From Longimicrobiales bacterium (GTDB lineage: Bacteria > Gemmatimonadota > Gemmatimonadetes > Longimicrobiales > Gaopeijiaceae), in contig OZ241869.1 of NCBI GenBank assembly GCA_965202805.1, positions 960,001 to 1,024,000 of the forward strand: a stretch of 64,000 nt of DNA, given 5' to 3'. Below are positions 39,915 through 58,754 of this stretch, piece by piece. The notes beneath the pieces were generated by a model. The model made no database searches and was not told the origin of the DNA. It saw only the letters and a program-made list of their open reading frames with translations. The position numbers and the translations under genes were made by a program. The first letter of the stretch is position 1. Each line of letters opens with the position of its first letter.

Positions 39915-40871
39915 TCAGAAGATCGAGAGGCTGATGTACCTGCCGGGATTCTCCCGGATGTCGTCCAGCAGCAGCTGAAGGCTCGATGCGGCCGCGGTCA
40001 GGTTGACGTAGAGCGAGTCGTCGTGGGACAGCATTCCCAGCGTACCCTCCCCCCGCTCAACGCGAGCCAGGATCCCGCGCAGGTCGGTAATCGCCGGTTC
40101 GAGGACCTCGAGGTTCCGGTTGACGGCCGCGAGCGCGGAGTCCGCCCGCATGGCGGCGCTCTCGAGCGCGGGCGCCGTTGACGACGTCGTGCTGCTCACC
40201 GCGCGCGCGGCCTCGTTGATCGACTCCACGAGCTGGGCGAGCTCGCTCCGCTGCTCCCGCCCGATGGCCGCCAGATCCGTCAGCAGGGACTCGAGCTCCT
40301 GCGCGCTCGCCTGAAACGACGCCACCGTGGGCTCGGTCAGCAGGTCGGCGACCCGCTGGATCACGTCGGTGGCTTCGTCCCCGATATCCGACACGATTCC
40401 GAAGACGTCGGAAGTCACAGTCCCCTCAAGGACGTCGCCGCCCTCCGCCATGGCGGGGGAGTTTCCGGGCAGAATCTCCACGGTGCGGCCTCCGAGCAGG
40501 CCGATGCCCACCAGCCGCACCTGCGAGTCACCGGGAATCTCGTATTCCCCTTCGATCTCGAGCTCGATGCTCACCCCCTCGGGCACCATGACGAAGCTCA
40601 TCACACGCCCGATGTTGACGCCGCGCATCTGCACGGGATCGGATCTTCGCAGGCCTCCCGCGTTCTCCACCACGGCCATGACCGAGTAGCGCCCGCGGAA
40701 CATGGACGGATCGGTCAGCATGAAGAGGGCGATCAGCGTGGCCAGCACTCCGGCTACGATGAAGATCCCGACGCGCGCCTCGCTCATGAGCGCCCGCGGC
40801 GGGACGGCCTGGCTGAGTTCCGCGTCCGAGGGCCCGGAACTCGTCCGGTAGTCTGTTTCCGCTTCGTTCAT
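39915..40871 (-). CDS. mlaD: MlaD/MCE family protein
   Basis: N-terminal TM helix, GL...DPV.MRGVNIGRV, GLLG, GEGTLG..L.DDSLY. Confidence 0.9.
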   Translation of the reverse strand: MNEAETDYRTSSGPSDAELSQAVPPRALMSEARVGIFIVAGVLATLIALFMLTDPSMFRGRYSVMAVVENAGGLRRSDPVQMRGVNIGRVMSFVMVPEGVSIELEIEGEYEIPGDSQVRLVGIGLLGGRTVEILPGNSPAMAEGGDVLEGTVTSDVFGIVSDIGDEATDVIQRVADLLTEPTVASFQASAQELESLLTDLAAIGREQRSELAQLVESINEAARAVSSTTSSTAPALESAAMRADSALAAVNRNLEVLEPAITDLRGILARVERGEGTLGMLSHDDSLYVNLTAAASSLQLLLDDIRENPGRYISLSIF

Positions 40872-41650
40872 GTCGTTGCCACCAGGTCTACCGCCGCCTC
40901 GGCGGCGGTTCTGTCCACGAATGCTCTCACGATCGGATCGCTGCTTACCCGGAAGGCCGTGGGGCTGCCGAGGAACCGCAGCCGCCCACCTTCCAGCATC
41001 GCCACCCGGTTACACATCTCCAGCCCTCCCTCGATGTCGTGGGTCACGATGACCGAAGTCACATCCAGTTCGCGGGAGAGACGCCGGATCTGACGCTGCA
41101 CTCCCGCGGTGTTGACCGGATCCAGCCCGGTGGTCGGTTCATCCCAGAGGAGGATGTCCGGCCCTCCCACGATGGCGCGCGCGATCCCCACCCGCTTCTT
41201 CATCCCTCCGGAGAGCTCGGCGGGAAGCTTGGTCATCACTTCACGCGGGTCCAGGAGCACCCGTTCCAGCGCCTGCCACACCAGTCGCGCGATGCGCATG
41301 CCGGTCATGGCGCGAAGACGCCTGAGAGGCAGTCCCGTCTCCACGTTCTCGAAGACGTTGAGGGAGTCGAAGAGCGCCGCATGCTGAAACACGTACCCGA
41401 CCTTGTCGCGGATCTGCCGCAGGTCCCTGCGATCCCCGAAGAACACCGACCTGCCGTCCACCTCCACGTCGCCCCGGTCCGGCACGATGAGGCCGATGGT
41501 GGTCTTGAGCAGGACGCTCTTGCCGGCGCCCGAGGCGCCGAAGAGGCCGAACATCTCTCCCGGGTGGATGTCCAGGTCGATGCCCTCCAGCACGGGGAGG
41601 TCGAACGCCTTGTGGACTCCTCGATACCGGATGACCGGACGAGTCTGCAT
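40868..41650 (-). CDS. mlaF: MlaF-type ABC ATPase
   Basis: GASGAGKS, LSGGMKKRV, DEPTTGLDP, VTHD. Confidence 0.92.
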   Translation of the reverse strand: MQTRPVIRYRGVHKAFDLPVLEGIDLDIHPGEMFGLFGASGAGKSVLLKTTIGLIVPDRGDVEVDGRSVFFGDRRDLRQIRDKVGYVFQHAALFDSLNVFENVETGLPLRRLRAMTGMRIARLVWQALERVLLDPREVMTKLPAELSGGMKKRVGIARAIVGGPDILLWDEPTTGLDPVNTAGVQRQIRRLSRELDVTSVIVTHDIEGGLEMCNRVAMLEGGRLRFLGSPTAFRVSSDPIVRAFVDRTAAEAAVDLVATT

Positions 41651-41674
41651 CGCGCCAGCAGTCCCCACGGGCCG

Positions 41675-42478
41675 TTAGTCCAGCAGGAGGGGTGGGAAGA
41701 GTGCGTCCATGATCAGAACCGCCAGCGTCATGAACATGACCGCCTGCGTCGTCGTCTTGCCGACTCCTTCGGCTCCTCCCTCCGTCCGCAGTCCCATGTG
41801 GATGGCGACCACGGGGATCGTGAAGCCGAAGACGAGCGCCTTCGTGAGCGAGTAGAAGAGATCCCAGGACTGCCAGTAGAGACGAGCCCCGTACAGGAAG
41901 CTGTTGGGCCCGAGCCCCACGGTGAGCTGCGCCGAGACCATGCCCGCCAGGATTCCCACCAGGTTTGCGATCGCGACCAGGATGGGAACCACGATGATGC
42001 CCGCGACCACCCTGGGAGCGGCCAGAATCGACACCGGATCCCGCCCTACGCTGTAGAAGGCGTCGATCTGCTCGGAGACCTTCATGGTCCCGAGTTCCGC
42101 GGTGATGCGGGCGCCTACGCGGCCCACCAGGACGATCGCGGTCAGCACCGGTCCCATCTCCAGGACCACCGACTCGGCGACGATGCTGCCCAGCACGTAA
42201 AGGGGGATGGCCCCGGTGAACTGGTAGCCGCCCTGCTGGCTGGTGACGATGCCGGCGAGCACGGCCGTCAGGACCACGATGGGGATGCTCTGCACGCCCA
42301 TCACGTACATCTGGCGCAGGATCGACCGCAGCGAGACCCGGAGGCCCACGAGTGCGGCGACGATGTCGCGCAGCAGGATCGCGATCTCGCCGGAGTGCTG
42401 CAGCACGGTGCGGCCGGCGCGCGCCACCTGCGCCAGTCCGCGTTCGACCCGGGAAGGGGCCTCGGAGCGCCCCGTCAC
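41675..42478 (-). CDS. mlaE: MlaE-type ABC permease
   Basis: EMGPVLTAI...GRVG..ITAELGTMKVSEQIDA, GGAEGVG. Confidence 0.93.
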   Translation of the reverse strand: MTGRSEAPSRVERGLAQVARAGRTVLQHSGEIAILLRDIVAALVGLRVSLRSILRQMYVMGVQSIPIVVLTAVLAGIVTSQQGGYQFTGAIPLYVLGSIVAESVVLEMGPVLTAIVLVGRVGARITAELGTMKVSEQIDAFYSVGRDPVSILAAPRVVAGIIVVPILVAIANLVGILAGMVSAQLTVGLGPNSFLYGARLYWQSWDLFYSLTKALVFGFTIPVVAIHMGLRTEGGAEGVGKTTTQAVMFMTLAVLIMDALFPPLLLD

Positions 42479-42722
42479 GGCCGGGAATCCGCGAGCGGCG
42501 CAGGCGCCGAACCCGTTCCGGCGAATGGCCCGATGCTCCTCATGCCTGCCGTTTTCTCCCTGGGTAACCTGCTGAGGTACAAGGGCTCTCCAACCAGTGC
42601 GCCACGAAGTGCCGCCGGGTACGCGCAGGATCCGCCCGCGCGCGCAGCCCATCGGCGTGGGAAGCATCTACGATTGCGGAGCCGATGGCAAGGGATCGCG
42701 GCTCCACCCGCGCATCATCGGC

Positions 42723-43436
42723 TCATGCGTCGGACACCGCGACCTCATCGGCACGGCGCGTCACCTCGTTCAACAGGGATTCGAGCCGATGCCGGTCCCC
42801 GGAATCGGAGTCGTGGTCCGGATCCCCGCCGGAGTGGCGGTCGGCCTCGAAGCGGCGCACGCATACGCGTACCCGGGCAAACGGCTTGGGGACGGCCATC
42901 CGGTCCCAGGAGTTCAGTCGCCAGTGGCGGTCCGACGCCAGGCCCATGGCCAGGACGGGCGCGCCGGACACGCGAGCCAGTACCAGGATTCCACGCTTCA
43001 GGTGTCGCGCCGGGCCTCGGGGCCCGTCCGGGACCAGGATGGGAGAGGAACCGCGGCGCCGAACGACGGCGCGAAGGGCCCACATCGCCTCGCGCCCGCC
43101 CGCGCTCGAGGAGCCGCGGACGATGCGCGCGCCCCATCGCCGCATGATGCGCGCAACCAACTCGCCGTCTCCCGACCGGCTGGTGAGGGCCGTGACGTCC
43201 ACGCCCTCCCCCCGCGCCATGCGCGCACCCGTAAAATACGCCCCGAGGATGACGCGGTCGTGCCAGAAGGCGAGGATGGCGGGCGGGCCGCCCGCGGCGA
43301 GCTGGTCCAGGTGCTCGCGGCCCTCCGCGATCTCGATGCGCCAGGTGCGGCCGAGGGCCTCGACGAACCAGCCCAGCAGCGTGGTTGCGAGGGCTCTCCG
43401 CCCGCGCTTGAGCCGCGTCGCGATGTCAGCACGCAT
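42723..43436 (-). CDS. DUF374 lysophospholipid acyltransferase family protein
   Basis: FWH, SRSGDGE, VRGSS, PDGPRGP, SWDR...PKPF. Confidence 0.88.
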   Translation of the reverse strand: MRADIATRLKRGRRALATTLLGWFVEALGRTWRIEIAEGREHLDQLAAGGPPAILAFWHDRVILGAYFTGARMARGEGVDVTALTSRSGDGELVARIMRRWGARIVRGSSSAGGREAMWALRAVVRRRGSSPILVPDGPRGPARHLKRGILVLARVSGAPVLAMGLASDRHWRLNSWDRMAVPKPFARVRVCVRRFEADRHSGGDPDHDSDSGDRHRLESLLNEVTRRADEVAVSDA

Positions 43437-43503
43437 GCGGCGCTTCCCCTGCGGCGAGAAGTCGACCCGAACCTCGGAGGAGCGAAGTCCGCGAGGAGGC
43501 AAG

Positions 43504-43587
43504 TGCCGGGAGTGGGACTCGAACCCACACGCCCCAACGGGCAAAGGTTTTTGAGACCTTCGCGTCTACCTGTTCCGCCATCCCGGC
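43504..43587 (-). tRNA. tRNA-Leu(CAA)
   Basis: GCCGGGATGGCGGAACAGGTAGACGC...CTCAAAA..long variable arm..GGTTCGAGTCCC...CCCGGCA. Confidence 0.96.
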
Positions 43588-43593
43588 AGGATG
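43575..43593. repeat. att core (left junction)
   Basis: ccgccatcccggcaggatg is identical to 54929-54947. Confidence 0.92.
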
Positions 43594-43619
43594 TTCCCAG
43601 TGGTAATCTGGCTGAAACC

Positions 43620-43635
43620 ATTGAACTTACGCGAT
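43620..43635. repeat. Putative arm-type integrase site
   Basis: attgaacttacgcgat matches 54884-54899 at 15/16 positions. Confidence 0.7.
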
Positions 43636-43667
43636 TGCGTGTTCGGGTTCCAGCCAATTGGGTCCCG

Positions 43668-44837
43668 CTAATTGCGCGGAGAGCAGACGCCTCGGCGGTC
43701 CTCAAGGGCTCTCCTGAGCTGATCTTCGTCGGCTCGCTGGTAGCATTGGAGCACCGTTCGGGCCGTCTGCCAGCCGCCGAGCTCGCAGAGCACCTTGAGC
43801 GGCTGGTTCATCAGATCCGAAGCGAACTTCCGCCGAAGCGAGTGCCAGCCCCGGCCACGCTTCGGCTCCAGTCCCGCGCGTGCTTCGGCCTTCTGCCACC
43901 AGTCACGGACCAGCCAACGGCTGACGCATGTGGAGGGATCCTTGAAAGTAGGTAGCACAGGTAGGTCCCCGGGGCTGAAGCTCCCTTGCCGCGCCTCGTC
44001 GAGGACCGCGAGCGCCTGGACGGTCAACGGCGTTCGGTGCTCGTAGCCGGACTTGTCGTGCTCGCCCCGCCACCGGACGGTCTTGGTCTCGGTGTCGATA
44101 TCGGACCATCGAAGCTGCCGAATGGCCCCGATACGATGCCCCGTCTCGTGTGCGAGGACGAAGGCGACGCGGAAGCGCCAGTCCATCTCCGCCGACACGC
44201 CGAGCAGGGCCTCGTATTCCGCCTGTGTAAGAAGCACCCGGGTCGGATTCTTCTCCTTCGGCGTCCTGAGGCCTCTCAGGGGATTCGAATCGAGGAGGAG
44301 TCTCCCCTGCTCGTCCCTCGATTTCGCAGCCCAGTTGAGGACTGCGATCAGGAGCTTGAGGTCGTGTTCGATCGTTCGATCGGACACCGGCTTGCCGCTC
44401 GGTCCGACCTCGCCCGACCGCCGCGCCCGGATGAACCGGTCCCAGTCCCTCCGCGACAGCGTAGCCGGATCTCGATTCCGTCCGAGGAATCCGAGAAACA
44501 TCTTCATCGCGGCTCTGTCGTGGAGGCGCGACTGGCAGCCCTTGGTGGGCGTCACCTCCTCACCGTAGATGTCAAAAAGCCTCTCCAGCGTGAGCGGCTC
44601 GGGCTCGGCTTGTGCCTTGCCGTTCAACTCCGGGCCGACGAATCCGGCGGCGAACTCGTCCGCCTGCCGTTTCGCCCTCGCCCAGTCGCGGTGTCCGAGC
44701 GACCGGGTGCGCCTGCGCCCGTTCTCGCGCCACTCCACCTGGAACAAGCCGGTTTTCGGATCCGGGAAGACCCGGACCCTGTTCCGGCCCCACTCGCCGG
44801 CGCCGTAGCTCCGGCGGCTTCGTTTCGTGCGTGCCAT
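43668..44837 (-). CDS. Tyrosine recombinase/integrase
   Basis: ETGHRIG (R), HDK (K), WHSLRR (HxxR), LGGW (W), QCY (Y); basic N-terminal arm-binding region. Confidence 0.95.
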   Translation of the reverse strand: MARTKRSRRSYGAGEWGRNRVRVFPDPKTGLFQVEWRENGRRRTRSLGHRDWARAKRQADEFAAGFVGPELNGKAQAEPEPLTLERLFDIYGEEVTPTKGCQSRLHDRAAMKMFLGFLGRNRDPATLSRRDWDRFIRARRSGEVGPSGKPVSDRTIEHDLKLLIAVLNWAAKSRDEQGRLLLDSNPLRGLRTPKEKNPTRVLLTQAEYEALLGVSAEMDWRFRVAFVLAHETGHRIGAIRQLRWSDIDTETKTVRWRGEHDKSGYEHRTPLTVQALAVLDEARQGSFSPGDLPVLPTFKDPSTCVSRWLVRDWWQKAEARAGLEPKRGRGWHSLRRKFASDLMNQPLKVLCELGGWQTARTVLQCYQRADEDQLRRALEDRRGVCSPRN

Positions 44838-44983
44838 CGTTCGATTCCTCCCGATTCGATGGACTGCACGATCTGCGCGTTTGAAACCTCGCGCAGGGCT
44901 CGCCCGTCGTCCAGAGTTGGCGGCCCGGCCGGTTCTGGCGCGGGCGCGCCACGGGGGCGCTGGTTTCTGCGGTTTGTGGAGGA

Positions 44984-45018
44984 GCCAGATGTGTTTTCGC
45001 TGCACGAAAACCTCTGGC
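44984..45018. other. Putative oriT inverted repeat
   Basis: GCCAGA..GTTTTCG-ctgca-CGAAAAC.TCTGGC immediately upstream of mobC. Confidence 0.6.
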
Positions 45019-45081
45019 CGGGGGATGCCCCCGGACCCCCGAAACGACACTTCCGCGCGCCACCAAAGGAGGCCGCCCGAC

Positions 45082-45426
45082 ATGGCCCGTCCCCGGAAGC
45101 CCGAGGCCGAACGCAGGAGCCGCACGATCGGCGTGCGCGTCACGACCGCGGAGGCCGCGGAGATCGCCGAGCGGGCCGGAGCGGCCCGCATGACGAGGGG
45201 CGGCTACATGCGCCGCAGGGCGCTCGGGCAGCCGGTCCGCGAGGCGGCCGTTCACCGTCTCGGCGCCAGGGAGCGGGTCGAACTCCACCGGATCGGCGTG
45301 AACCTGAACCAGATCGCCCGCGCCCTGAACTCGGGAGCGTCCGCACCGGCCGGGACGCTGGAGGCGGTCGAGCGGGTGGGCGATCTTGCGGCCGATCTTC
45401 TGAGCGGCGAGGGGCTGGACCGCTGA
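45082..45426 (+). CDS. mobC: MobC relaxosome accessory protein (RHH)
   Basis: AAAGGAGG RBS; RTIGVRVT..E; ELHRIGVNLNQIARALN. Confidence 0.92.
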   Translation: MARPRKPEAERRSRTIGVRVTTAEAAEIAERAGAARMTRGGYMRRRALGQPVREAAVHRLGARERVELHRIGVNLNQIARALNSGASAPAGTLEAVERVGDLAADLLSGEGLDR

Positions 45427-46619
45427 TCCCGAAGATCAACGGACTGGGCCGCTCGTTCGCCGGGGTCGCGGCGTACTGCCTCCACGATGCCCCGGAGCCG
45501 GACGACCGCCGGCCGAGGACGTCGGAGCGGGTCGGGTGGGCCGACACCCGCAACCTCGCGACGTTCCGGCCGGAGCGGGCCGCGCGGCTGATGGCCGCGA
45601 CGGCGAGGGCGGCTCCCGACCTCAAGCGGCTTTCGGGCGTGGCGCGAGGGGGCCGGAAGCTGGCGAAGCCGGTCCTGCACTACTCGCTCAGCTGGGCGCA
45701 GGACGAGACGCCCGACAAGCGGGAGATGAGCCGGGCGGTGGACCGGAGTCTGGAGGCGCTGGGGCTGGAGGGCCACGAGGCGCTGATCGTCGCGCACGAG
45801 GACACCGGGCACCCGCATGTCCACGTCATCGCCAACCGTGTCGATCCAGAGACCGGGAAGGCGGCGACGCTGGGCAACAGCAAGCTCCGGCTGTCGCGCT
45901 GGGCCGAGGGCTACGAGCGCGAGCAGGGCCGGATCCGGTGCGAGAGGCGGGTCGAGAACAACGAGCGGCGGCGGGCGGGCAAGCAGGTGCTTCGCCTCAC
46001 GGGGGATCGGCCGCGCCACTGGGCGCGCGTCCGCCGCGAGGGGATGCAGCCCGGGCGGGCGCGGCGGGCGAGGACGCCGCGCGAGGAGGAGCGGGTCGAC
46101 TTGGAGGCATGGCGGCACCTTGAGGCGGAGGCTTGGGAGAAGGTCGAGGACGGGCGCGAGTGGGGCTTCCGGCACCTTGAGACCCGGGCGCGGAGGGAAT
46201 GGGCCGAGCTGCACAAGCGGCAGGAGGAGATGCGGCAGAGGCTCGACCGGGAGAGCCGTACCGTGCTCGGGCGGCTCCGGATCTGGCGGATCGAGCGCTC
46301 GTTGCGGGAACTGGTCGGTGCGGTCCGGGGCCGGGAGGACCTGGTCGAGGGCTGGCGCGACGATCTCGCCCGGAATCACAGGGACGAACGGGCCGCGCTG
46401 GGCAAGGCACACGGCGAGCGCGCCCGGGAGATCGAGCGCGGTGTGCGTAAGCACTATCGAAGCGGGCTGGTGGACGCGGAGCGGCGCGCATGGGCAGTGC
46501 GGGAGACGATGAGGGAGCGCCAAGAGACGGGGGAGCGGGAGAGCGGTCCGAGCATCATCATCCCCATTTCCCCCCGGCGCAAAGGCCCCGAGCGTGGCGG
46601 GGGAGGGTTCGAGCGATGA
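45423..46619 (+). CDS. Relaxase/mobilization nuclease (MOBP/VirD2-like), CTG start
   Basis: (L)IPKI...RSF.GVAAY, PVLHYSLSW, AHEDTGHPHVHVIANRV HUH motif. Confidence 0.9.
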   Translation: MIPKINGLGRSFAGVAAYCLHDAPEPDDRRPRTSERVGWADTRNLATFRPERAARLMAATARAAPDLKRLSGVARGGRKLAKPVLHYSLSWAQDETPDKREMSRAVDRSLEALGLEGHEALIVAHEDTGHPHVHVIANRVDPETGKAATLGNSKLRLSRWAEGYEREQGRIRCERRVENNERRRAGKQVLRLTGDRPRHWARVRREGMQPGRARRARTPREEERVDLEAWRHLEAEAWEKVEDGREWGFRHLETRARREWAELHKRQEEMRQRLDRESRTVLGRLRIWRIERSLRELVGAVRGREDLVEGWRDDLARNHRDERAALGKAHGERAREIERGVRKHYRSGLVDAERRAWAVRETMRERQETGERESGPSIIIPISPRRKGPERGGGGFER

Positions 46620-46844
46620 CCCTTGACGCGCGCCGAGATCTTCCGCCTCGGGATGTTGCCGGTGACCGCGTGGCGGAAAGTCGGTGCGATCAGCCGCGTG
46701 TAACGCCGCGCCGATTCAGGCGGCGGAACACAGCAAGCTGCCCAAAGTGATCCGGTTGCTTCTCGAGATCCCCGGATTGGACACGCTCCCGGCTGGCTTC
46801 GGTCCTACGCCCCCGCCTGGGAGAACCGGCGGCGCCATCCCCGC

Positions 46845-47261
46845 TCACGGAGAGCGCGCGACGAACACGGCCTGCAAGTGCGTCTCCCCCTCTTCCTTGG
46901 CAGCTATGAATCTGTGCCTGCCGTCCAAGACCGCCAGCGTACCGCCGGGCAGGCCGCGCACAACGAGCGGGCGGTCTCGATATGTCCGCTCCCGGCGCAG
47001 CTTTTCAATCCACTCGCGACAGGCGAGCGCGGGATCCTGAATGGAGACCACACGACGAAGCGCGATCCGTTCAGCGGGCAACGTCGCGCTCATGGTATCC
47101 ATGACATGCGTCCTCAGGTCCATTGCAATGGCGTGACCGGAGTCGTCGTCCCGAGTCGCGTCAATTGCTCGTTCGAGGCTAACAAACCAGCGCCTTAACG
47201 TCTCGCCATCGTACGTCCCCGCCGCCAACCCGTCCTCAATCTTCCCGACGGTCATGCTCAT
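46845..47261 (-). CDS. Small ParB/Srx-fold protein
   Basis: PLVV......VLDGRHRFIAA motif; GGAGG RBS. Confidence 0.72.
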   Translation of the reverse strand: MSMTVGKIEDGLAAGTYDGETLRRWFVSLERAIDATRDDDSGHAIAMDLRTHVMDTMSATLPAERIALRRVVSIQDPALACREWIEKLRRERTYRDRPLVVRGLPGGTLAVLDGRHRFIAAKEEGETHLQAVFVARSP

Positions 47262-47660
47262 TTCAGTTGGCCTCCCGGCCTCTGGCCGCTGGCGGCCGTC
47301 CGTCGTCTCCAGCAAGCCACGGCATTTGGCCATCTCACGCGGGGAGGCGTCGGTGCCGATGTGGGCCAGTAGAGCGGCCGCGGTGGATGGCCGGAAGCCC
47401 CTGCCCTCTCATCCAAACCGAGCACCCGCGCGATAGCCGTCAGCCTGCCATGACACACCCCGTCCGCGAGGTGTCGAAAATGTCGGGGTCCGAGCGCTGT
47501 CCCGCGGGAGAGAGCGGAGCGCGGGCGCCGGTCAATCGGAATGGTGCGCAGGAAAGTCCCGTCGCGCGCGTCCGGTACGTCACTTCGCCGGTGACGCCAG
47601 AGGGTGCAAGCATCCGGTGCCATGCGGTCGCCGGCAGGCACGTGCCGGCACCGAGGACCC

Positions 47661-48221
47661 TCACCGGGCGGATTCCTCCCCACGAAAGGCCATCTGGATA
47701 GCGCGGCGTCGGTTGTCGGTGGCTTCTTTGTCCGCTCCCCAAGCGGCAATCCGTCTGGTTTGGGCAGCGCGCGTCTCCGGTGTCTCGTGCTCCGGGCACC
47801 AAACCGCGATTTTGACTCGCTCAGGGTGTTCCTGTAAGCACTCGGGACAGGGCTCTACGGCCGCGATGCGCCGGGCGGCCTCAAGGCAGACGCCGAACTC
47901 CGTTGCGTCTTCCAATTGCTGCGCCAGCTCCCACAGCATCAGGCCGGCACTGTCCCGTTGCCATGCACTGGCGTCCCGCAAACGGCCCGTGGCCACCCCG
48001 ACCGCCTTGAGTGCGTCCCGCTCGGTCGCCAAGCCCTTGCGAAGGGTTGCTGCGTAGCTCCAAGCCAGGGCGATCAGAAGAGACACCGCAATCGCCGCCC
48101 AGAGGGGAATCCCCCACCACAAGGCCAACACCGCAAGCACCGCCCACCGCCAGATCACGTCACCGGCGCTCCGGCTTTTCGCCCGCACTGGAGCAAGTCG
48201 GGAGTCACAGCCCGCCCCCAT
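47661..48221 (-). CDS. Hypothetical membrane protein with CPEC/CPEH motifs
   Basis: Trp-rich hydrophobic hairpin followed by a helical region; start uncertain. Confidence 0.5.
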   Translation of the reverse strand: MGAGCDSRLAPVRAKSRSAGDVIWRWAVLAVLALWWGIPLWAAIAVSLLIALAWSYAATLRKGLATERDALKAVGVATGRLRDASAWQRDSAGLMLWELAQQLEDATEFGVCLEAARRIAAVEPCPECLQEHPERVKIAVWCPEHETPETRAAQTRRIAAWGADKEATDNRRRAIQMAFRGEESAR

Positions 48222-48381
48222 GAACAACGGGTGCCGCACCGACCGAAAGCTCCCTGTAGCGCGATGGAGAAGCCACGGTACACCGAGTCGAAAAGGTTGA
48301 CTTGTGGTTCCGGCATCCGTTCACCCCGCACTCCAAGCGGCTCCGAGTCGACCTCCAAGGAGGTCTCGCTCCGGTACGACG

Positions 48382-49809
48382 CTACCGTCCTCCAACGTCG
48401 CGTCTTGCCCGCTCAAGATCCCCTTGTCGGTATTGGAAACTGGAGCAGCGATCGTTGTAGCGGTCCACTATTCGGTCGAAGGCATCATGATCCCCCTCGC
48501 TCACTACGTTGGGGCGGTACCTTTCGATCATTCGATCCTCGCGTAGGCACCACCTCAGTTGCGGCAGGGACAGGATCAGGTCGGTGCCGGGCGGCGGCAT
48601 TTCGAAGCCGATTTCCTCCGCGGCAGGCGGCGACGAACGTACCGTGTCAGGCGGCTTACCGGTGTCGAGTAGCTGCTCGACCGCATTCTCGATGGTGACG
48701 TAGTCGGTGCCCGGCAGCCTTCTCGCGGCTCCGCTTCCGCGGCTGACCAGAACGATCGGGGTACCGGTGAGGTTGAGCGCGCTGGCCAGTCGGAGATTCG
48801 CCGACACGCGGTCGGCGTGTCGGTCCGAGTTGAGGCAGTCGCGAAACGCGCCGTCGTCGAGCCCCAAGGTACGGGCGTAGCCGACGAAGTTGCGAACAGG
48901 ATCGCCCGAAGCCGCCCACGAGAGCTGATTGTCGAAGAGCGTGGTGTGGTATTCCCAGTAGCGGTGCTGGTCCCCGGCACAGTGGGACGCTCTCGACGCG
49001 AGGAACGAGTTGGAGTGAATGCCCACAAGCGGCAGGTCGTAGAAGACGAACTTCGCCCGCCCCGTGCCAACTAGGTTCAACTCGATGAGAGGCTTGACGC
49101 CTGAGGCGAACATGGCGCAGCCCTGGCACTGATAGCCCCCGAACTCCACAACCGAGATGGGAGCGGCTGGGTCTCCCATTTCGCTTCCGTATGCCAGGTT
49201 GACGAGTTCTTCGTCGGAGAGATCGCCCAGGTCCACGGGCTCGGTGACCGCGCTGTTGAACACCGTCGAGCCGGTCGTATAGACCGCCGGCACCACGTTG
49301 ACGAGTACTTCGTTCATTCGATCGCGGATACCTTCCGTTGCGACCAACGCCCCTGCCACCACAACCAACCCAGCAGGTACTGCTACAAGCCACTTACGAC
49401 GCTGGCTGTTGGGCCTTCTGTTACGTCCGATCCCACTCGGGGAAGCGGCAGGTGGCCGCTGTGGATCCTCTTGGTCGTGCGAAGCCCACGCCCGCTCTTT
49501 GTCCCGCTGATCACGCTCTCGGTGGTTACGTTCCGAGCGCTGTTGCGGCTCGCGCTCTGGTTGTCGGGGGCCTTGCGGTCCCCGATGCTTGTGATCTTCC
49601 CGCCGTCGGGATCGCGTCCCTTCGATAGGCTTAAGGCGCTCGTAAGCTTCGCCGACCTGTTTGAAGATCCACTCAGAGGCCTTGTCTCCCGGATTCTTGT
49701 CCGGGTGGTGCTTCTTTGCCAAGCGTCGATATGCCGACCGGATCTCTTCCCAAGTTGCCCCTTGTTCGAGGCCGAGGACTTCGTACGGATCCAAGTCGCG
49801 ACTTCTCAT
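48382..49809 (-). CDS. DnaJ-domain / TM / DsbA-like thioredoxin fusion protein
   Basis: [21 protein letters not shown]; one TM helix; [22 protein letters not shown]; Cys-containing C-terminal domain. Confidence 0.85.
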
Positions 49810-49952
49810 TCCGTCTCCGCAGCCGGTCTGTCGCCCCGCTCCCGCTGCCGGGCATTACGTTTCGAAACACGACCGCTCCCGGATCATGAGGGCGTGTGCG
49901 AGCATCGTACGGATCGAGAACCATGTCGGGCAAGCCTCCGGTTCTCCTGACC

Positions 49953-52379
49953 TTATCGCGCGGCCTCCCAGGCTTGCCGCATCCCCGGGAGCGCTTCGCG
50001 CAGGACCGCATCGATCCGGATGTACAGGCCCTGTATCCGCCGCTCCTTTTGCCCGGCCGTCAGGCTTCTGTCCATGCGGACCTGATCCCCTTCACGGCGA
50101 AGGCGCGACGCTTGCCGCTGAGCTCGCTCGCTTCGATTGTCCGCACGGCGGATGGCTGGCGGGATTCGAGCACGATTCCGTGAAGCCCCGGCGATCTGCC
50201 TGTCCAGCCAATCGGCCAGTTCATAGAATTCGTCGCTGGCTCGCGTGAACGTCCTCGGTCTTGTCGGTTGCAGGCTGTACACGCCGGTCAGCAGACGCGC
50301 GGTCTTCGGAAAAGGCTTGGGGCCGTTGCGCCTCGTATCCCACATGACTTGCTCGTCGAGTACCGCCACCACCGCGTTGCCAAGATGGCCCGTCCATCCC
50401 CGCACGAAGGTCTGGACGTGCAACGGCGACACGCTCAGCACCGATCCGACGGCCCGGTACGGCAGCGGAGTGCTGCGGTGGAAGTATCGTTCCTCAGCGG
50501 GCCAGTACATCATGTAGGCGGGGATGACTTCCTCCCCGAAGAAGTTGCGGTTGGTCCGGACTTCGACGAAGGGCTGTGCAACGGCCGGAATCCAACCCAC
50601 TGCCAGGTTGCCGTGAATCAACGACCAGACGAACTTCGGTCCCGCTTGGGTGCCGCTTCCGAACGTGAGGTCCAACGCCACTTCGGGCAGTTTCACGAAC
50701 ACGGCGCCGATTTGAAACGGAACCGGAATGCGGACGTCCGTGTCGCCCCAAGCATCGTATAGCGTCACCCAGGACGCTTTCTCGTAGTCGGTCTGATTCC
50801 GGTACTCGGCGCGCCGGGCATTCCAAAGATCGTTGTGCCACCACCCCGCTGCGGCCAGCAGCGACAGGCAGAGTCCCGACGCAAACGTCTTGGCGACGTG
50901 GCGCCTCCGCTCATGTCCCCACCGCGGCGCGCCCTTCGCGGCCCGCCGACGGAACCGGACGATCTGGTAGAGTTGATCGAAGCCCTGGATCGCGGCGTTC
51001 AGGAACGGCACGGTGTGGACGTACATTCGCCATCCCCGGGACGACCCGATGTTGGCGAAGTCCGCGGAGACCATGCGTGCGGCCCGGGCGGCCATGTAGT
51101 CCGTGGCGCCCGCCCTCCGAGCCCTCTGGAACTGATCGACCCGGGTACCCGCTTCGGCGATCCACGCGGGCCGTGTCAGCACGTAGACGAAGCGGGTCCA
51201 TCGTCGCCGAGTGATCCCACCCTGGATCGTGCCCCGGTTCTCGCCCCGCACGTCCCCCAGATGAACTTCCGATTCCACCAAGCCCGAGTAGAAGCCCCCT
51301 TGAAGCAGGTACTCGCGCATGCGGCGCGATCTCCCAGTGGCCAGATCGTGCATCGCGTGCAAGCCGCCAAAAAGCGTTCCCAAGAAGGGAAGCTGCCAGT
51401 ACCGGCCCGCCACGAAGCCTGCAAGCGTATCGCGGAAGAAGTTCTTGACGATGAACACCGGCATCGCGGTAATCATCGTCGAGACGGCCGTCTTGAAGGC
51501 GGCCAGGAATCGGATGAGTCCCGGCATCGGCGCCTCCGCGATGCTGCTCAGCATGGAGGCAAGCGCGTCGTCGCGGACCACGAAGCGTCTTCGTCTGCCC
51601 CGTACCACTGCCACGGTGGGACCGGCGCCATGTGTCTGGGTAGGACCGAGCGTTTCCGACGCGATACGGTTCCCATCGGGATGGCTCGTCACAGTATCGA
51701 ACAGTTCGCTACGGGCGCGACACGCGAGCGCGTTGTAGATGTTCCGGGCAAAGACGTTCCTGAGCGCGATGACCAGATCCCCGTCGAGCGCTTCCATCGC
51801 GTCATCATGTTCCGGTCGGTCCCGTAGAGAACCGTCGGCATTGCCGAAGGGCGCCAACACCGGGATGCCTTCCCTCCTGTAGCGCTCGGCTTCGGCCGCG
51901 GTCAGGTAGCGCATTTGGGTGTAGTAGAGCAGCATCGCGCGGTGAAGTCCGACGAGCCGGACCGCGAACTCGGCTACGTCGGGGTTCTCCGAGGCGTACC
52001 GGAGCAGACGGTGTTGCGCGGGCGAGAGCGGCTGCGCCGTGGCGCGGTGGTGATCGCCTCCGAACAATGCGGCGCAGTGGACGGCCTTCTCGAAATGGCT
52101 GTGGCCTTTCCTCGCGACCGGCTTGACGATGCTCCGCAGGCTATGCGTGTCCTCGACAGCCACTCGCCCGGTGCCGTCCGGCGACTCAGCGAACGCTCCG
52201 TAGCGCCAGATGTATTCAGCGAGGGATCTGGCGTGGTTGATGTCCTCGAAGCGGTAGCCCACGTCGTCGTTCCCAAACCACTCGCCTATCGTCTGTGCCG
52301 CGTGCCAGCGGTGAACGAAACGCGTGCGGATGGAGCGTAGGCGGCTGTCCGCAAGTCGCCCGATGCGCCGTGTACTCAT
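49953..52379 (-). CDS. LPD38-like (large polyvalent protein domain) protein
   Basis: KNFFRD, VPFLNAAIQG.DQL, RIPVPFQIG..F..LPE, P..EV.TNRNFFG..IP and GWTG.LG motifs. Confidence 0.72.
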   Translation of the reverse strand: MSTRRIGRLADSRLRSIRTRFVHRWHAAQTIGEWFGNDDVGYRFEDINHARSLAEYIWRYGAFAESPDGTGRVAVEDTHSLRSIVKPVARKGHSHFEKAVHCAALFGGDHHRATAQPLSPAQHRLLRYASENPDVAEFAVRLVGLHRAMLLYYTQMRYLTAAEAERYRREGIPVLAPFGNADGSLRDRPEHDDAMEALDGDLVIALRNVFARNIYNALACRARSELFDTVTSHPDGNRIASETLGPTQTHGAGPTVAVVRGRRRRFVVRDDALASMLSSIAEAPMPGLIRFLAAFKTAVSTMITAMPVFIVKNFFRDTLAGFVAGRYWQLPFLGTLFGGLHAMHDLATGRSRRMREYLLQGGFYSGLVESEVHLGDVRGENRGTIQGGITRRRWTRFVYVLTRPAWIAEAGTRVDQFQRARRAGATDYMAARAARMVSADFANIGSSRGWRMYVHTVPFLNAAIQGFDQLYQIVRFRRRAAKGAPRWGHERRRHVAKTFASGLCLSLLAAAGWWHNDLWNARRAEYRNQTDYEKASWVTLYDAWGDTDVRIPVPFQIGAVFVKLPEVALDLTFGSGTQAGPKFVWSLIHGNLAVGWIPAVAQPFVEVRTNRNFFGEEVIPAYMMYWPAEERYFHRSTPLPYRAVGSVLSVSPLHVQTFVRGWTGHLGNAVVAVLDEQVMWDTRRNGPKPFPKTARLLTGVYSLQPTRPRTFTRASDEFYELADWLDRQIAGASRNRARIPPAIRRADNRSERAQRQASRLRREGDQVRMDRSLTAGQKERRIQGLYIRIDAVLREALPGMRQAWEAAR

Positions 52380-52571
52380 GCCGTCCCGTGCGTCAAGTGA
52401 CCGTCACCATCAGCCAGTGAAGGGCGAGTCGGATGAGGGGGCACTGCATGTCGCCCCGCCCACTAGGAAATGCTCCCGGGCGGACGGGGTCCTTCAAGAT
52501 TCAACCCGATCTCCCAACAGCCGAGCGTGACGGACATATAACGTTGCTCGGCCCGCATCAAAAGGAGGCAC

Positions 52572-53072
52572 ATGGGACCCAGCCAGTTTCTCGCGCCCTC
52601 GATGGCTGTCAATTCGCGCCACGCGGCGGCGTCGGCCTAAGAGGCCATCGTGGGAGATGCAACCTTCCCCGACGGCCAAGCGCCGGATGTTCTCCCGCGG
52701 ACCACCGATTCACCGCCGGTCGAGGCCGTCGGTTTCGCAGGTGAGGTCTGGGGCGTGACCGGCGACCGCGTGGTCGGCGTTGCCACCGCTCCGGCGCCGG
52801 TCCCCCGGCCTCCGGGACGGGCTTCGCCCGTCCCTCCCGCCGGGTCGAGCCGCCGCGCCGACACCGACGGAAATCCCAAGGGTCTCAGGGAAGCGGAGCG
52901 TCCCTTGCCAGACCGCCGTGTTCAAACACGGCATCGGCTGGCTCTCCCGCCGCAGCGGCGTCTGTCCCCCTCCGTGTTCTCCTGCCTGAGGTCGATACCG
53001 CTGAACCGCTCCCGAAAACTCTCGGCGAGGGGGGAAAGCACCGTGCAACCGGGCGGCGGATCGACTGGGTAG
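52572..53072 (+). pseudogene. Possible interrupted ORF (or 22-aa peptide 52572-52640)
   Basis: Strong AAAGGAGG RBS and ATG, in-frame TAA at 52638-52640, frame then stays open to 53072. Confidence 0.3.
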
Positions 53073-53151
53073 ACCGGCCTCGGTCACCTCGCTGTCCACA
53101 GGCCGTAACAGTCCGCGGCCATCGAGGAAACGCGGAGGATCGGAGCCAGCT

Positions 53152-54144
53152 TCACGGGTTTCGCCTCTCGCAGCGTCGCAGTTCCTCACGCCAAAATTCC
53201 GCCACCGCCGCCACGCCATCCGCGAAACCCGAAGCAAACGAGGGTTGCGCGAGTCGGTCCGCCAGATAGGAGGAGGGGCTATAAGAGGAGGAGTGTGGCA
53301 TCCATGCCGCCGCCACCGCCGCCGCGCTCGCGGCCCCGCTAACGAAGCCAGATGTGGCGTCCGCCACGTTTGGCTCCTCGCCCCGGCGAATCTCGTTGGT
53401 CCGTTCGATGGCGAGGGCTCCCGCCCACGCCGCCGCGTCATAGGCAATCCACCAAGCGACCGTCCGCGCCTTCGCCGCCGCCTCAAACTCCGCCCAGTCC
53501 GCCGCCGCCTCCGCCTCTTGTCTCGCGCTCATCGCCGCTTGCGCGGCCTCGAAGTATACAGAATCCCGGCGTGCCGATATGGCATTTCGCTTCACGAACG
53601 GTGAAAGTCCCTCCCATCGCGGCCCATACCTCGCCCGGGCCGCTGCCTCCGCCGCGCCCATATCTGCCGAAAACGCCTCCCACGCGTCCGCCTCCGTCTC
53701 TTCCGCCAACGCCCTCGCTTCTTCCGCCGCCCAGTACTCCCGCACTGCCTCCCACGCCGAATTCCTGGCCGCCCAGCTCCCATGCAGCGGCCTCATCACG
53801 CTCCCGGGTCCTAAGGTCGGGTCCGTAATCAGGTCCGCGATCCCTGTCAAACTCGCAGGCGCTCCCTCGGGGGCCGGTGCTAGGTCCGAGAGCCAAGCCG
53901 CTATTCTTCGGGGAAGTTCGCAAAGGTCCCTGTCCGGCAGGTCTTGGCCCGTGACGGCGACGGGGAGCACCAACAAGACCGCAAGCGTGATCGCCGTACG
54001 TCTTGCGGCCTCGGCTCTCAATGCCTTCGCCCACATCCGCGCTGCGCTGCGCTTCCCCCTAATAGGGCTCAAGGCCCGCGCCGCGCTTGCAGAGGCGTGG
54101 GCGCAAGACCCTGTGGACGCCGCCCTGTCGTTCGGTCCCGTCAT
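53152..54144 (-). CDS. Hypothetical Ala-rich helical protein with a hydrophobic segment
   Basis: GGAGG RBS; TLAVLLVLPVAVTG segment, then Ala/Glu/Trp-rich helices. Confidence 0.55.
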   Translation of the reverse strand: MTGPNDRAASTGSCAHASASAARALSPIRGKRSAARMWAKALRAEAARRTAITLAVLLVLPVAVTGQDLPDRDLCELPRRIAAWLSDLAPAPEGAPASLTGIADLITDPTLGPGSVMRPLHGSWAARNSAWEAVREYWAAEEARALAEETEADAWEAFSADMGAAEAAARARYGPRWEGLSPFVKRNAISARRDSVYFEAAQAAMSARQEAEAAADWAEFEAAAKARTVAWWIAYDAAAWAGALAIERTNEIRRGEEPNVADATSGFVSGAASAAAVAAAWMPHSSSYSPSSYLADRLAQPSFASGFADGVAAVAEFWREELRRCERRNP

Positions 54145-54198
54145 GCTGTCGCCTCCATGTACCGGGGGAGCGCGAGCGTGGCCCAGTCTGCCTCTGGG

Positions 54199-54444
54199 TT
54201 ACGTAGCCACCTCAGGCACGCACACCGCCGCGTCGGGCCACCGGGCCACCACGGCCAGCGCTGCTCTCTTGGCTGTCGCCGTCTTCCGTGCCTCATCCGC
54301 CTCCACCGCAGCCAAGATATCCGCATCCTCCACCCCAGCCGCCTCCAGCACCTCCCGCACTGAATCCGCCAGCCTCCTTGCCGAGGCCGCCTTCGCCTCC
54401 GCTCTCCACGCCTTTGCTAGGTCCCTCGCTTTACCATGGCTCAT
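54199..54444 (-). CDS. Small hypothetical helical protein
   Basis: GAGG RBS; 81-aa Ala/charged helical ORF. Confidence 0.45.
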   Translation of the reverse strand: MSHGKARDLAKAWRAEAKAASARRLADSVREVLEAAGVEDADILAAVEADEARKTATAKRAALAVVARWPDAAVCVPEVAT

Positions 54445-54883
54445 TTGGCGGCCTCGTGCTCCTCAGGTGTGTCCGTTACGGGACCGGGACGTTCCGCCCC
54501 GCCTGGTCCGCTAAAACCTACCATCGTCCACGCGGCGTCGCCAACGAGTTGGCTGGAGCCGTTCCTCACGTCCAAACGCGCCAATTGGGTTGCCGCTCAA
54601 GCGGCTCCGATCCTTGGAAGTTCGGTCTCACGTCAACGATCACGGCGAGGACAACGAGGGCCGCGCGATCGCAGACCGAGGGGGCATGAACCAGCGTCGA
54701 GCGAAAGGAAGCTGGCTTGTGACGCGCCACGGCTTGCGACGGCAGTAAAGGGCGAAGGAAAGCCCTGACACGGGAGGCGGAAATAGTCCGAAGTCCCGCC
54801 ATCTGATACGGTTTCCCCGCCGTTTTAGCGCGCTGGAAGCAGACAATGGTGCAACGGCAAGAAACGCAGATCGTGCAGCCCTG

Positions 54884-54899
54884 ATTGAACTTACGTGAT
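54884..54899. repeat. Putative arm-type integrase site
   Basis: attgaacttacgtgat matches 43620-43635 at 15/16 positions. Confidence 0.7.
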
Positions 54900-54928
54900 C
54901 TCTTGCCGTGATTCGCGCCACCTGCAAC

Positions 54929-54947
54929 CCGCCATCCCGGCAGGATG
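54929..54947. repeat. att core (right junction): first 13 nt of tRNA-Leu plus 6 nt of leader
   Basis: Identical to 43575-43593. Confidence 0.92.
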
Positions 54948-54956
54948 GAGCGGTAT

Positions 54957-54984
54957 AAGCTACCCTGTAGCGCTTCGCCCGCAA
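54957..54984 (-). promoter_or_regulatory. Putative native tRNA-Leu promoter, now facing into the element
   Basis: TTGCGG-16 bp-TAGCTT ending 15 nt before the duplicated tRNA 5' end. Confidence 0.55.
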
Positions 54985-55086
54985 AATGGGACTTGGCGCG
55001 GGTCTGCCGTCCTTGCAGGAGGTACGCCCAGGTCGACAAGGGACGCCGAGGCGGGGACGAGCGTCCGAGCGTAGCGCGGGAGCGAC

Positions 55087-55764
55087 TCAGAGTGCGACCT
55101 GGTCGCCCGCCGGCGTCTCCAGCACGGCAACCAGCCCCGCCCGCCCCACCGCCACTCCGAGCCCGACGCCGAGCCGATCCAGTTCGCGCCGCACCAACGC
55201 CGGATCGGGATGGCGCCCACTCAGCCGGACGAGGCGGACTCCCCGGTCGGGGAGTTGGGCACAGGGATGCGGGGTGTCACCCCAGTCGATGAAGAAGGGG
55301 ATGATGCCCTGCCGGGGAAGCGGCTTCCGGGGCATCGTGAGCGTCCAGGCGATGCGTTCGCCGCCGGGCCTGGTGCGGGACATGGGTCGCAGCGGACCCA
55401 GGAGGTGGCCGCCCGGACCGGCGGCCAGGCCGTCCAGATCGGCGGAACGGACCGCCCAGGTCACCAGCGCCGGCAGCGGGGCCTTGCCGCCGGTGAACCA
55501 GAGGCCGCCGGCCGGCGCCGGTTGCTCCGGGTCCGGACCCACGACCTCCAGGTAGATGCGGTCACCGATGCGCAACAGGCAGTTGCGCGTGCCGAGTCCC
55601 GGATGGCTGCCTCCGGGCGTCGGGTGTGCGCCGAGGCGTTCCTCGATGTCGCGCACCCCGGCCGCGAGGTCGGGAACCCCGTAGACGAGGTGGTCGGTTC
55701 CCGGGGGCACCGGCTCATGACCAGGACGAGTCGCCACCCCGCGCGCACATTCGGAATCAGTCAT
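55087..55764 (-). CDS. VOC/glyoxalase-like family protein
   Basis: DHLVYGVPDL, GGSHPGLGTRN, YLEVVG, PFFIDW. Confidence 0.9.
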   Translation of the reverse strand: MTDSECARGVATRPGHEPVPPGTDHLVYGVPDLAAGVRDIEERLGAHPTPGGSHPGLGTRNCLLRIGDRIYLEVVGPDPEQPAPAGGLWFTGGKAPLPALVTWAVRSADLDGLAAGPGGHLLGPLRPMSRTRPGGERIAWTLTMPRKPLPRQGIIPFFIDWGDTPHPCAQLPDRGVRLVRLSGRHPDPALVRRELDRLGVGLGVAVGRAGLVAVLETPAGDQVAL

Positions 55765-55997
55765 TGATCGCGGGGTGGGAGGACGAGGTTGACGCATGGG
55801 GGTCCACGGCCGAGGGAAGGTTCGTCAACGTAGCACCGAACTGCGCTGTCCGGCGATGTGCGACAGGCGATGCCGGTACGATCATCGGCGACCCTCTGGT
55901 GAGCATCATCAGGAGGCGGGATGTTAGTTTGAGGTTGACGAGAATCCGTCGCCCCCGCGCGACGATGCGCCGGCTCCACGACCCAGGTAGCAGACCC

Positions 55998-58754
<2,757 letters not shown>

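Follow-up and report, generated by a model that had tools for sequence, protein, structure and literature searches.

An 11,354-bp island at the first bases of tRNA-Leu(CAA) in a Longimicrobiales bacterium, and a predicted replacement promoter at its near end

How can a tRNA gene stay in use after a mobile element has inserted at its 5′ end and carried its promoter away? The question is raised by a 64,000-nucleotide stretch of a Longimicrobiales genome (contig OZ241869.1, positions 960,001 to 1,024,000; the window), in which an 11,354-bp island with a tyrosine integrase occupies the first bases of tRNA-Leu(CAA) and the host promoter lies beyond the far end of the island. An earlier note on this DNA had described the insertion and had suggested that excision might switch the tRNA back on. 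In the explanation that we favor, the island entered through tRNA positions +3 to +9, displaced the host promoter and probably keeps the tRNA expressed from a replacement promoter at its near end. Below, G000 denotes the genome under study, G001–G018 other genomes of the genus and L numbers integrase loci; because certain L loci may correspond to the same records as G genomes, their counts should not be added together, nor can kin be treated as independent.

Borders, empty site and displaced promoter

The island is bounded by two identical 19-mers (43575..43593 and 54929..54947, minus strand) with a period of 11,354 bp. They are the sole copies in the 4.02-Mb single-contig genome, in which 0.0002 copies would be expected by chance. 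On the minus strand the repeat reads as 6 nt of leader followed by tRNA positions +1 to +13 (−6..+13). The tRNA-side copy is the att core that opens the intact, single-copy tRNA-Leu(CAA) gene (43503..43587, minus strand), complete at the left junction as the earlier note had it. The promoter-side copy, located by repeat search and contig joints, is a displaced 5′ fragment of the tRNA with its leader. A second repeat, ATTGAACTTACG, marks both element ends at 43620 and 54884. The integrase-proximal end (43620..43668, minus strand), which is kept in the integrase family, carries the arm-like motifs GCGGGA (43668) and GCTGGAA (43654) and the end motif CGTAAGTTCAAT (43631-43620). The far end (54794..54895, minus strand) carries CGTAAGTTCAAT (54895-54884), CTGCACGATCTG (54878-54867) and arm-like motifs at 54832, 54820 and 54799. 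CTGCACGATCTG also stands just upstream of the integrase start (44862-44873), inverted relative to the far-end copy at 54867-54878; it is conserved in the family and is possibly a site for a regulator or host factor. The unit that the earlier note had described, with integrase, mobC and relaxase between perfect repeats, was thus recovered by exact copies and by Pfam matches (PF00589, NikA/MobC and PF03432).

Metagenome contigs preserve both states of the site. Four of 24 listed contig runs were compared (X1, X2, X3 and X6); such contigs drop rare variants, and X1 and X2 may be the source of the genome itself. In X3 and X6, which come from two studies and have flanks about 99% identical to ours, position 43574 is joined directly to 54929, skipping 11,354 bp with 19 ambiguous letters. 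Contigs of X2 span both junctions and one contig of X1 spans the right junction, with even depth over island and flanks in both runs. Among the 15 joints listed of 25, with rare variants dropped from the contigs, there was no empty-site joint in X1 or X2 and no excised-circle joint in any of the four runs. Four RNA runs each held less than 10% of the words of the stretch. An assembly artefact or chance repeat might be entertained, as paralogous integrases in metagenomes can confuse assemblies and two loci show swapped integrase and end types. The junction-spanning contigs, the exact empty-site joint, the occupation of the site in eight other genomes and the negligible number of chance copies rule it out for practical purposes.

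The DUF374 locus beside the tRNA was found in 18 of 19 genomes of the genus. In these 18 genomes tRNA-Leu(CAA) is preceded by the native promoter in eight, by an element end in nine and by neither in one (G007). The corresponding counts for tRNA-Leu(TAA) in 19 genomes are seven, ten and two (G005 and G018). G017 (6% contamination) contains, in addition to its empty site, another copy of promoter plus far end; it entered the counts a single time, as empty. The contiguous empty site for which the earlier note had proposed to look, in the order VOC gene, promoter, tRNA and DUF374 gene, is present in four of the eight native-promoter genomes and in the two metagenome read sets. The pattern of end plus core was seen in this genome and in 4/7 congeners, and in 0/143 other genomes of the class searched. 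The island is real, was recently gained or lost, and is of a known rare kind.

The displaced promoter, TTGCGG-16-TAGCTT (54957..54984, minus strand), lies outside the right repeat, 11 kb from the tRNA, and is now directed into the element; its TAGCTT ends 15 nt before the displaced tRNA +1. It scores 10.2 bits in a promoter model trained on the host and is not listed by a strict sigma-70 scan. The form TTGC..-16-TAG(C/G)TT stands directly upstream of tRNA-Leu(CAA) in all eight empty-site genomes and precedes the displaced core in G000, G002, G003, G004, G006 and G011. Because of this conservation and its recurrence before displaced cores, it is very likely the real native tRNA promoter. The earlier note's proposals that this site is promoter-like and that the insertion parts the tRNA from it both held up.

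Displacement is neither confined to one tRNA nor always reversible. In 7 of 18 genomes, among them this one, neither UUR-reading tRNA is still joined to its native promoter, and in relatives the island has often decayed to its tRNA-facing end alone. Within the stretch examined, the integrase is missing at the CAA locus of G001 and G013 and at the TAA locus of G000, G011, G013, G014 and G016. In our genome tRNA-Leu(TAA) has a 70-bp integrase-less element end in front of it (G000:C1:370660-370810), and the native promoter of seven congeners is absent there. In G002 the native promoter is inverted and 38 kb away. A sibling element from the same family interrupts the Leu integrase near residue 46-49 in both G006 (L140:2251-18765) and G002 (L141). 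The only credible copy of tRNA-Ile(GAT) in our genome lies behind a paralogous 44.6-kb element (G000:C1:2001249-2045917) whose integrase is 74% identical. Here the tRNA's 5′ half, as far as the anticodon loop, is duplicated 44.6 kb upstream with one D-loop mismatch, and the intact tRNA lies directly behind the element end.

Crossover position and the integrase family

The integrase (389 aa; 43668..44837, minus strand) matches PF00589 (1e-17) and retains R235, K262, H332, R335, W356 and Y366, which are conserved across 64 aligned homologs. Its gene is whole, with the stop 75 nt from the att core and 81 nt from the tRNA. The N-terminus gives weak AP2-like matches (Pfam, E 0.012; PDB 6sy0, E 6.5e-4 over profile 30-70), and no NCBIfam family reaches its cut-off. 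Relatives were compared over the best 78 loci of 572 matches. The nine Leu integrases form one clade (support 100/99), are at least 83% identical to one another and are about 72-73% identical to the Ile clade and to one integrase labeled as 3′-side Ile. This single clade is found at both tRNA-Leu(CAA) and tRNA-Leu(TAA).

Six attL/attR pairs share −6..+13, −6..+11, −6..+9, −3..+14, −3..+11 and +1..+11. Their common part, +1..+9, confines the exchange to the first nine bases of the tRNA by sequence comparison, and the register of the dyad described below makes a 7-bp overlap, CGGGATG at +3..+9 (43585..43579), likely. The leader before an occupied tRNA is supplied by the element, because CCT is present in 9/10 element-side TAA leaders and in 0/7 native TAA leaders. 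Wherever an end was mapped, two GC(G/T)GGA repeats come after the integrase, then CGTAAGTTCAAT or a variant, 29 nt and a dyad, and the distance of the dyad from the end motif is identical for Leu, Ile, Pro and Val targets. The dyad is an anticodon stem-loop in the usual orientation in nine cases (tRNA-Pro 7, tRNA-Val 1, tRNA-Ile 1), an anticodon stem-loop in reverse orientation in five tRNA-Ile cases, and a non-tRNA palindrome in most other loci. In the nine Leu cases it is CCTGC-CGGGATG-GCGG, a mimic of the anticodon stem-loops that sister integrases use, with equal spacing. A core dyad around a 6-8 bp overlap, with arm-like repeats at both ends, corresponds to a lambda-type layout of predicted sites.

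These observations suggest how the insertion may have come about. The family would recognize a C(C/A)(T/C)GC-N7-GC dyad that lies 29 nt beyond a fixed end motif. Sister clades would find it in the anticodon stem-loops of tRNA-Pro, tRNA-Val and tRNA-Ile or in non-tRNA palindromes, and the Leu clade would use a mimic assembled from the leader, G1C2 and the start of the D-stem, common to tRNA-Leu(CAA) and tRNA-Leu(TAA). Insertion through the 7 bp at +3..+9 would then have moved the host promoter to the far end. The 5′-end specificity proposed in the earlier note is borne out by the six junction pairs and by att positions tabulated across homologs, nine of them Leu cases at the 5′ end. Its judgment that such targeting is unusual stands only in part: insertions of this kind are rare and the crossover position is unusual, but targeting of tRNA 5′ ends has precedents. 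An acceptor-stem symmetry that would flip a 3′-end integrase to the 5′ end was considered and rejected, since in the Pro, Val and Ile cases the crossover falls in the anticodon loop.

Several other loci of the family are recorded here for completeness. In L051 a family integrase lies on each side of a single tRNA-Ile(GAT); both use the anticodon loop, one from the 5′ side and the other from the 3′ side. Two further family elements in our genome are at non-tRNA palindromes of the type CCTGAC-N5-GTCAGG (G000:C1:1109251-1115772 and 3196647-3215520), and there are several orphan far ends. In L017, L070 and L049 integrase clade and end type disagree (a Pro-type protein with a non-tRNA end, and the reverse), which reflects either recombination between paralogs or assembly chimeras.

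How the occupied tRNA may be transcribed

The strict sigma-70 scan found neither the native promoter nor any site at the near end, and the host-trained model, which is crude, was used instead. Its best-scoring site within 80 nt upstream of the tRNA is TGGAAC (43652-43647)-17-TAAGTT (43629-43624), a predicted promoter (43624..43652, minus strand) 36 nt upstream of tRNA +1 that is formed by the end motif together with the second of the arm-like repeats. The tally covers ends tied to an integrase and supersedes a noisier one over all loci (126 "other" ends). Left out were an integrase containing an internal stop, a short match, a locus lacking the motif and a locus at a contig end, and eight Pro/Val ends are counted within the 82 "other" ends. 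TGGAAY-17-TAASTT (T at −23 plus TAnnnT) is present in 14/14 ends that face a tRNA 5′ end versus 5/82 other ends. A T 23 nt before TAnnnT is also the strongest upstream bias in host intergenic DNA (2.16-fold, 547 TAnnnT sites). The 5′-facing ends score 8.2-8.6 bits versus a median of 0.2 for other ends; the native promoters lie at 9.7-11.0 for CAA and at 6.3-9.2 for TAA. For the Ile clade, the putative −10 ends 6 nt before tRNA-Ile +1, and the single tRNA-Ile(GAT) of our genome serves 38,505 ATC/ATT codons. In G001 a deletion fused the native −35 region to the first arm of the element; the integrase and the native −10 are lost, the upstream gene is divergent and the element end is kept. Where an end faces a tRNA 5′ end, its arm-like motif and end motif may have a second role as −35 and −10, and after the island decays the remaining end would be retained as the promoter of the tRNA. 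On this evidence we lean toward the element end acting as a replacement promoter.

Several points weigh against this assignment. Between 6 and 8% of random 80-mers score as high as the predicted site. The 14 ends have one or two origins, a single Leu+Ile clade being unrejected (p-AU 0.059). Because TAnnnT is also present in 48/82 other ends, it is primarily a recombination signal. The G013 CAA remnant lacks TGGAAC, and both the native promoter and an element end are missing from G005 and G018 (TAA) and from G007 (CAA), meaning that there are other routes of transcription. The integrase runs in the same direction as the tRNA, and no terminator was found between them. To the lack of a circle joint among those listed can be added that of an Xis-like gene or directionality factor, as no small gene is conserved among the 78 loci. 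An ECF-type reading of the end (consensus GGAAC..CGTAA) was discarded on account of its spacing of 15 and the recurrence of the motif at the far end. An inverted arm-motif copy at 43611 lets the interval 43594-43668, between the integrase stop and the tRNA, fold as a long hairpin (−32 kcal/mol). Only read-through RNA would take up this structure; alternatively, the two copies could be an operator pair flanking the predicted −10.

Read-through would make the promoter-like site no more than an att motif, with the tRNA transcribed from the integrase or an upstream host gene, as has been reported for archaeal pTN3-like elements. It retains some probability because there is no terminator in the 81 nt after the co-oriented integrase; moreover, most integrase-less TAA remnants have a co-oriented upstream open reading frame (ORF), and G005 and G018 have kept the TAA tRNA without the end motif. 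Nevertheless, the genes upstream of the CAA remnants in G001 and G013 are divergent, a major tRNA such as tRNA-Ile(GAT) would hardly be run from an integrase promoter, and the −35 T tracks with 5′-facing ends. We consider read-through unlikely, if well worth keeping in mind. Weak expression that the cell tolerates is a more doubtful account. UUR codons are rare (TTG is 4.1% and TTA 0.17% of Leu codons), the UAA anticodon also reads UUG by wobble, and three loci have no recognizable promoter source. However, both UUR decoders are displaced in the same 7/18 genomes, TTG is used 3922 times in 1464 of 2058 long ORFs (a crude set), and the two ORFs that follow tuf, judged to be rpoB and rpoC from position and size, contain it 6 times (1382 aa) and 4 times (1433 aa). 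The tRNA-Ile case would also be left unexplained.

The earlier note's idea of a recombination switch, in which the integrated state is off and excision restores the promoter, follows the gene-integrity concept of a target that is inactive while an element is integrated and is restored by regulated excision. Excision through the intact repeats would rebuild promoter and tRNA exactly, the catalytic residues of the integrase are intact, and empty and occupied alleles coexist within the species. Against it, depth is even in X1 and X2, neither an empty-site nor a circle joint is among those listed, and elements at the tRNA-Leu(CAA) site have wholly different cargo. Several states are irreversible, namely inversion (G002) or deletion of the promoter, the split integrases of G002 and G006, and the loss of the integrase in G001, G013 and the TAA locus of G000. 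With both UUR decoders displaced in 7 of 18 genomes and a promoter-like site on the element end itself, the sequences indicate that the island is probably not an on/off switch, and we give the idea very little credence; the excised circle that would have spoken for it was not among the 15 joints. A replacement promoter at the element end remains our preferred reading.

Cargo, host context and known systems

Besides the integrase, the island encodes a NikA/MobC-like mobilization protein (45082..45426, plus strand; PF21983, PF05713) and a MobA/VirD2 (MOBP-like) relaxase (45423..46619, plus strand; PF03432). The relaxase frame begins with CTG (45423-45425), which is ATG in both close homologs; present mobility is therefore uncertain. 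No oriT was located. The cargo, all on the minus strand, consists of two ORFs of 162 and 192 aa without a Pfam match (46845..48239), a DnaJ domain fused to a DsbA/thioredoxin domain (48382..49809; Pfam), an 808-aa LPD38-domain protein (49953..52379; PF18857) and two ORFs of 330 and 81 aa that run in the same direction as the displaced host promoter (53152..54444). Four ORFs of the island have no confident family. An approximately 180-bp, MITE-like repeat (52673-52854) recurs in three other genome regions at 84-86% identity. The 78 integrase loci have nothing in common beyond the integrase, the region upstream of it and the two ends. A 12.75-kb element at the same site in G011 has no cargo in common with this island. 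The earlier description of a mobilizable element holds insofar as integrase, mobC and relaxase are present; the mob genes are variable cargo outside the conserved unit, and 2-3 of 78 loci contain a close homolog of mobC or of the relaxase.

The host DUF374 gene (42723..43436, minus strand; PF04028) lies 66 nt downstream of the tRNA. A terminator scan found no minus-strand terminator between the two, and they are possibly co-transcribed. DUF374, mlaE, ABC ATPase and mlaD genes follow on the same strand (39915-43436), and the promoter swap might affect them too. The upstream neighbor at the empty site is a VOC/glyoxalase gene (55087..55797, minus strand; PF13468). The tRNA is the only Rfam match in 42000-56000. 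Elsewhere in the genome, 17 tRNA genes are clustered in 2.9 kb (G000:C1:2827836-2830698), with tRNA-Ile(GAT) outside the cluster, and an integrase-less element end adjoins the 3′ end of tRNA-Pro(TGG) (G000:C1:967769, window position ~7770). The host is likely a sponge-associated member of the Gemmatimonadota, because the closest integrases are in records titled Longimicrobiales, Gemmatimonadetes or Ca. Palauibacter and the stretch is present in sponge metagenomes.

After an island inserts, the tRNA nearly always keeps its own promoter, and few tests have addressed why the rare 5′-side insertions are viable. In this genus three tRNAs are represented by empty, occupied and decayed alleles, and a family of integrases 72-93% identical switches among anticodon loops (in either orientation), the acceptor strand and non-tRNA palindromes. 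Two questions can be tested here: what residues and bases redirect an integrase to another target, and whether host promoters can arise by co-option of att arms.

The crossover position lies outside the usual subsite scheme. According to the excerpts of the literature cited here, bacterial tRNAs keep their promoter with very few exceptions (review, PMC8371274), and the sublocations I-III of Williams, summarized there, place crossovers in the anticodon loop, the T loop or the 3′ end. The Leu clade, with identity confined to +1..+9, occupies none of these; its sister clades use the anticodon loop. In the Islander excerpt, 159/3919 islands have a 5′ tRNA fragment and crossovers are binned to the anticodon (A) or T/junction (J) subsites (PMC4383910). 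Like those islands, ours combines a tRNA with a displaced 5′ fragment upstream, and the native promoter is separated; the Ile clade is of the A type, whereas the Leu clade fits neither. Archaeal pTN3-like integrases use the 5′ half of a tRNA (PMC8371274, PMC5495485). They too target the 5′ part of tRNA-Leu(CAA) and leave the restored tRNA off its original promoter. In those accounts, however, there is a 41-bp identity to the anticodon region, attP lies inside an integrase gene that is split on integration, and the tRNA is said to use the integrase promoter, whereas here the integrase is whole and a dedicated end promoter is predicted. Klebsiella islands at the 5′ end of arg2 (tRNA-Arg; integrase subclade I.d) are likewise tyrosine-integrase islands upstream of the tRNA with a repeat over the 5′ acceptor strand (10.1101/2020.11.02.365908). 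In the passages compared, which leave the promoter aside, that repeat spans acceptor strand, D-stem and D-loop ("D-loop sublocation"), and the supplements may show shorter cores; ours includes the leader and stops short of the D-loop, at +9 to +14, in 6/6 junction pairs.

With an integrase and a relaxase but no conjugation pore (type IV secretion) genes in about 11 kb, the island resembles integrative mobilizable elements. It differs from those listed in the cited excerpt, where tRNA targets are 3′ ends and 5′-end targets are the protein genes ebfC and tatD, and in having mob genes as exchangeable cargo (PMC5704250). Phages of tRNA-dependent lysogeny share a short core in a single-copy tRNA and the need to repair what insertion breaks; as excerpted, they destroy the tRNA and bring their own, whereas here the tRNA is restored and likely only its promoter is replaced (PMC10865867). 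Further context is given in PMC8138268, PMC13626063, PMC11476347 and PMC12884075. Our literature search, which is no proof of absence, returned no crossover at +3..+9, no att-derived tRNA promoter and no paper pairing Palauibacter with an integrase. The island acts like other 5′-side tRNA islands and stands outside the three classic sublocations and the pTN3 type. It is an insertion of a rare type that has precedents, combining an unusual crossover position with what is likely a built-in replacement promoter.

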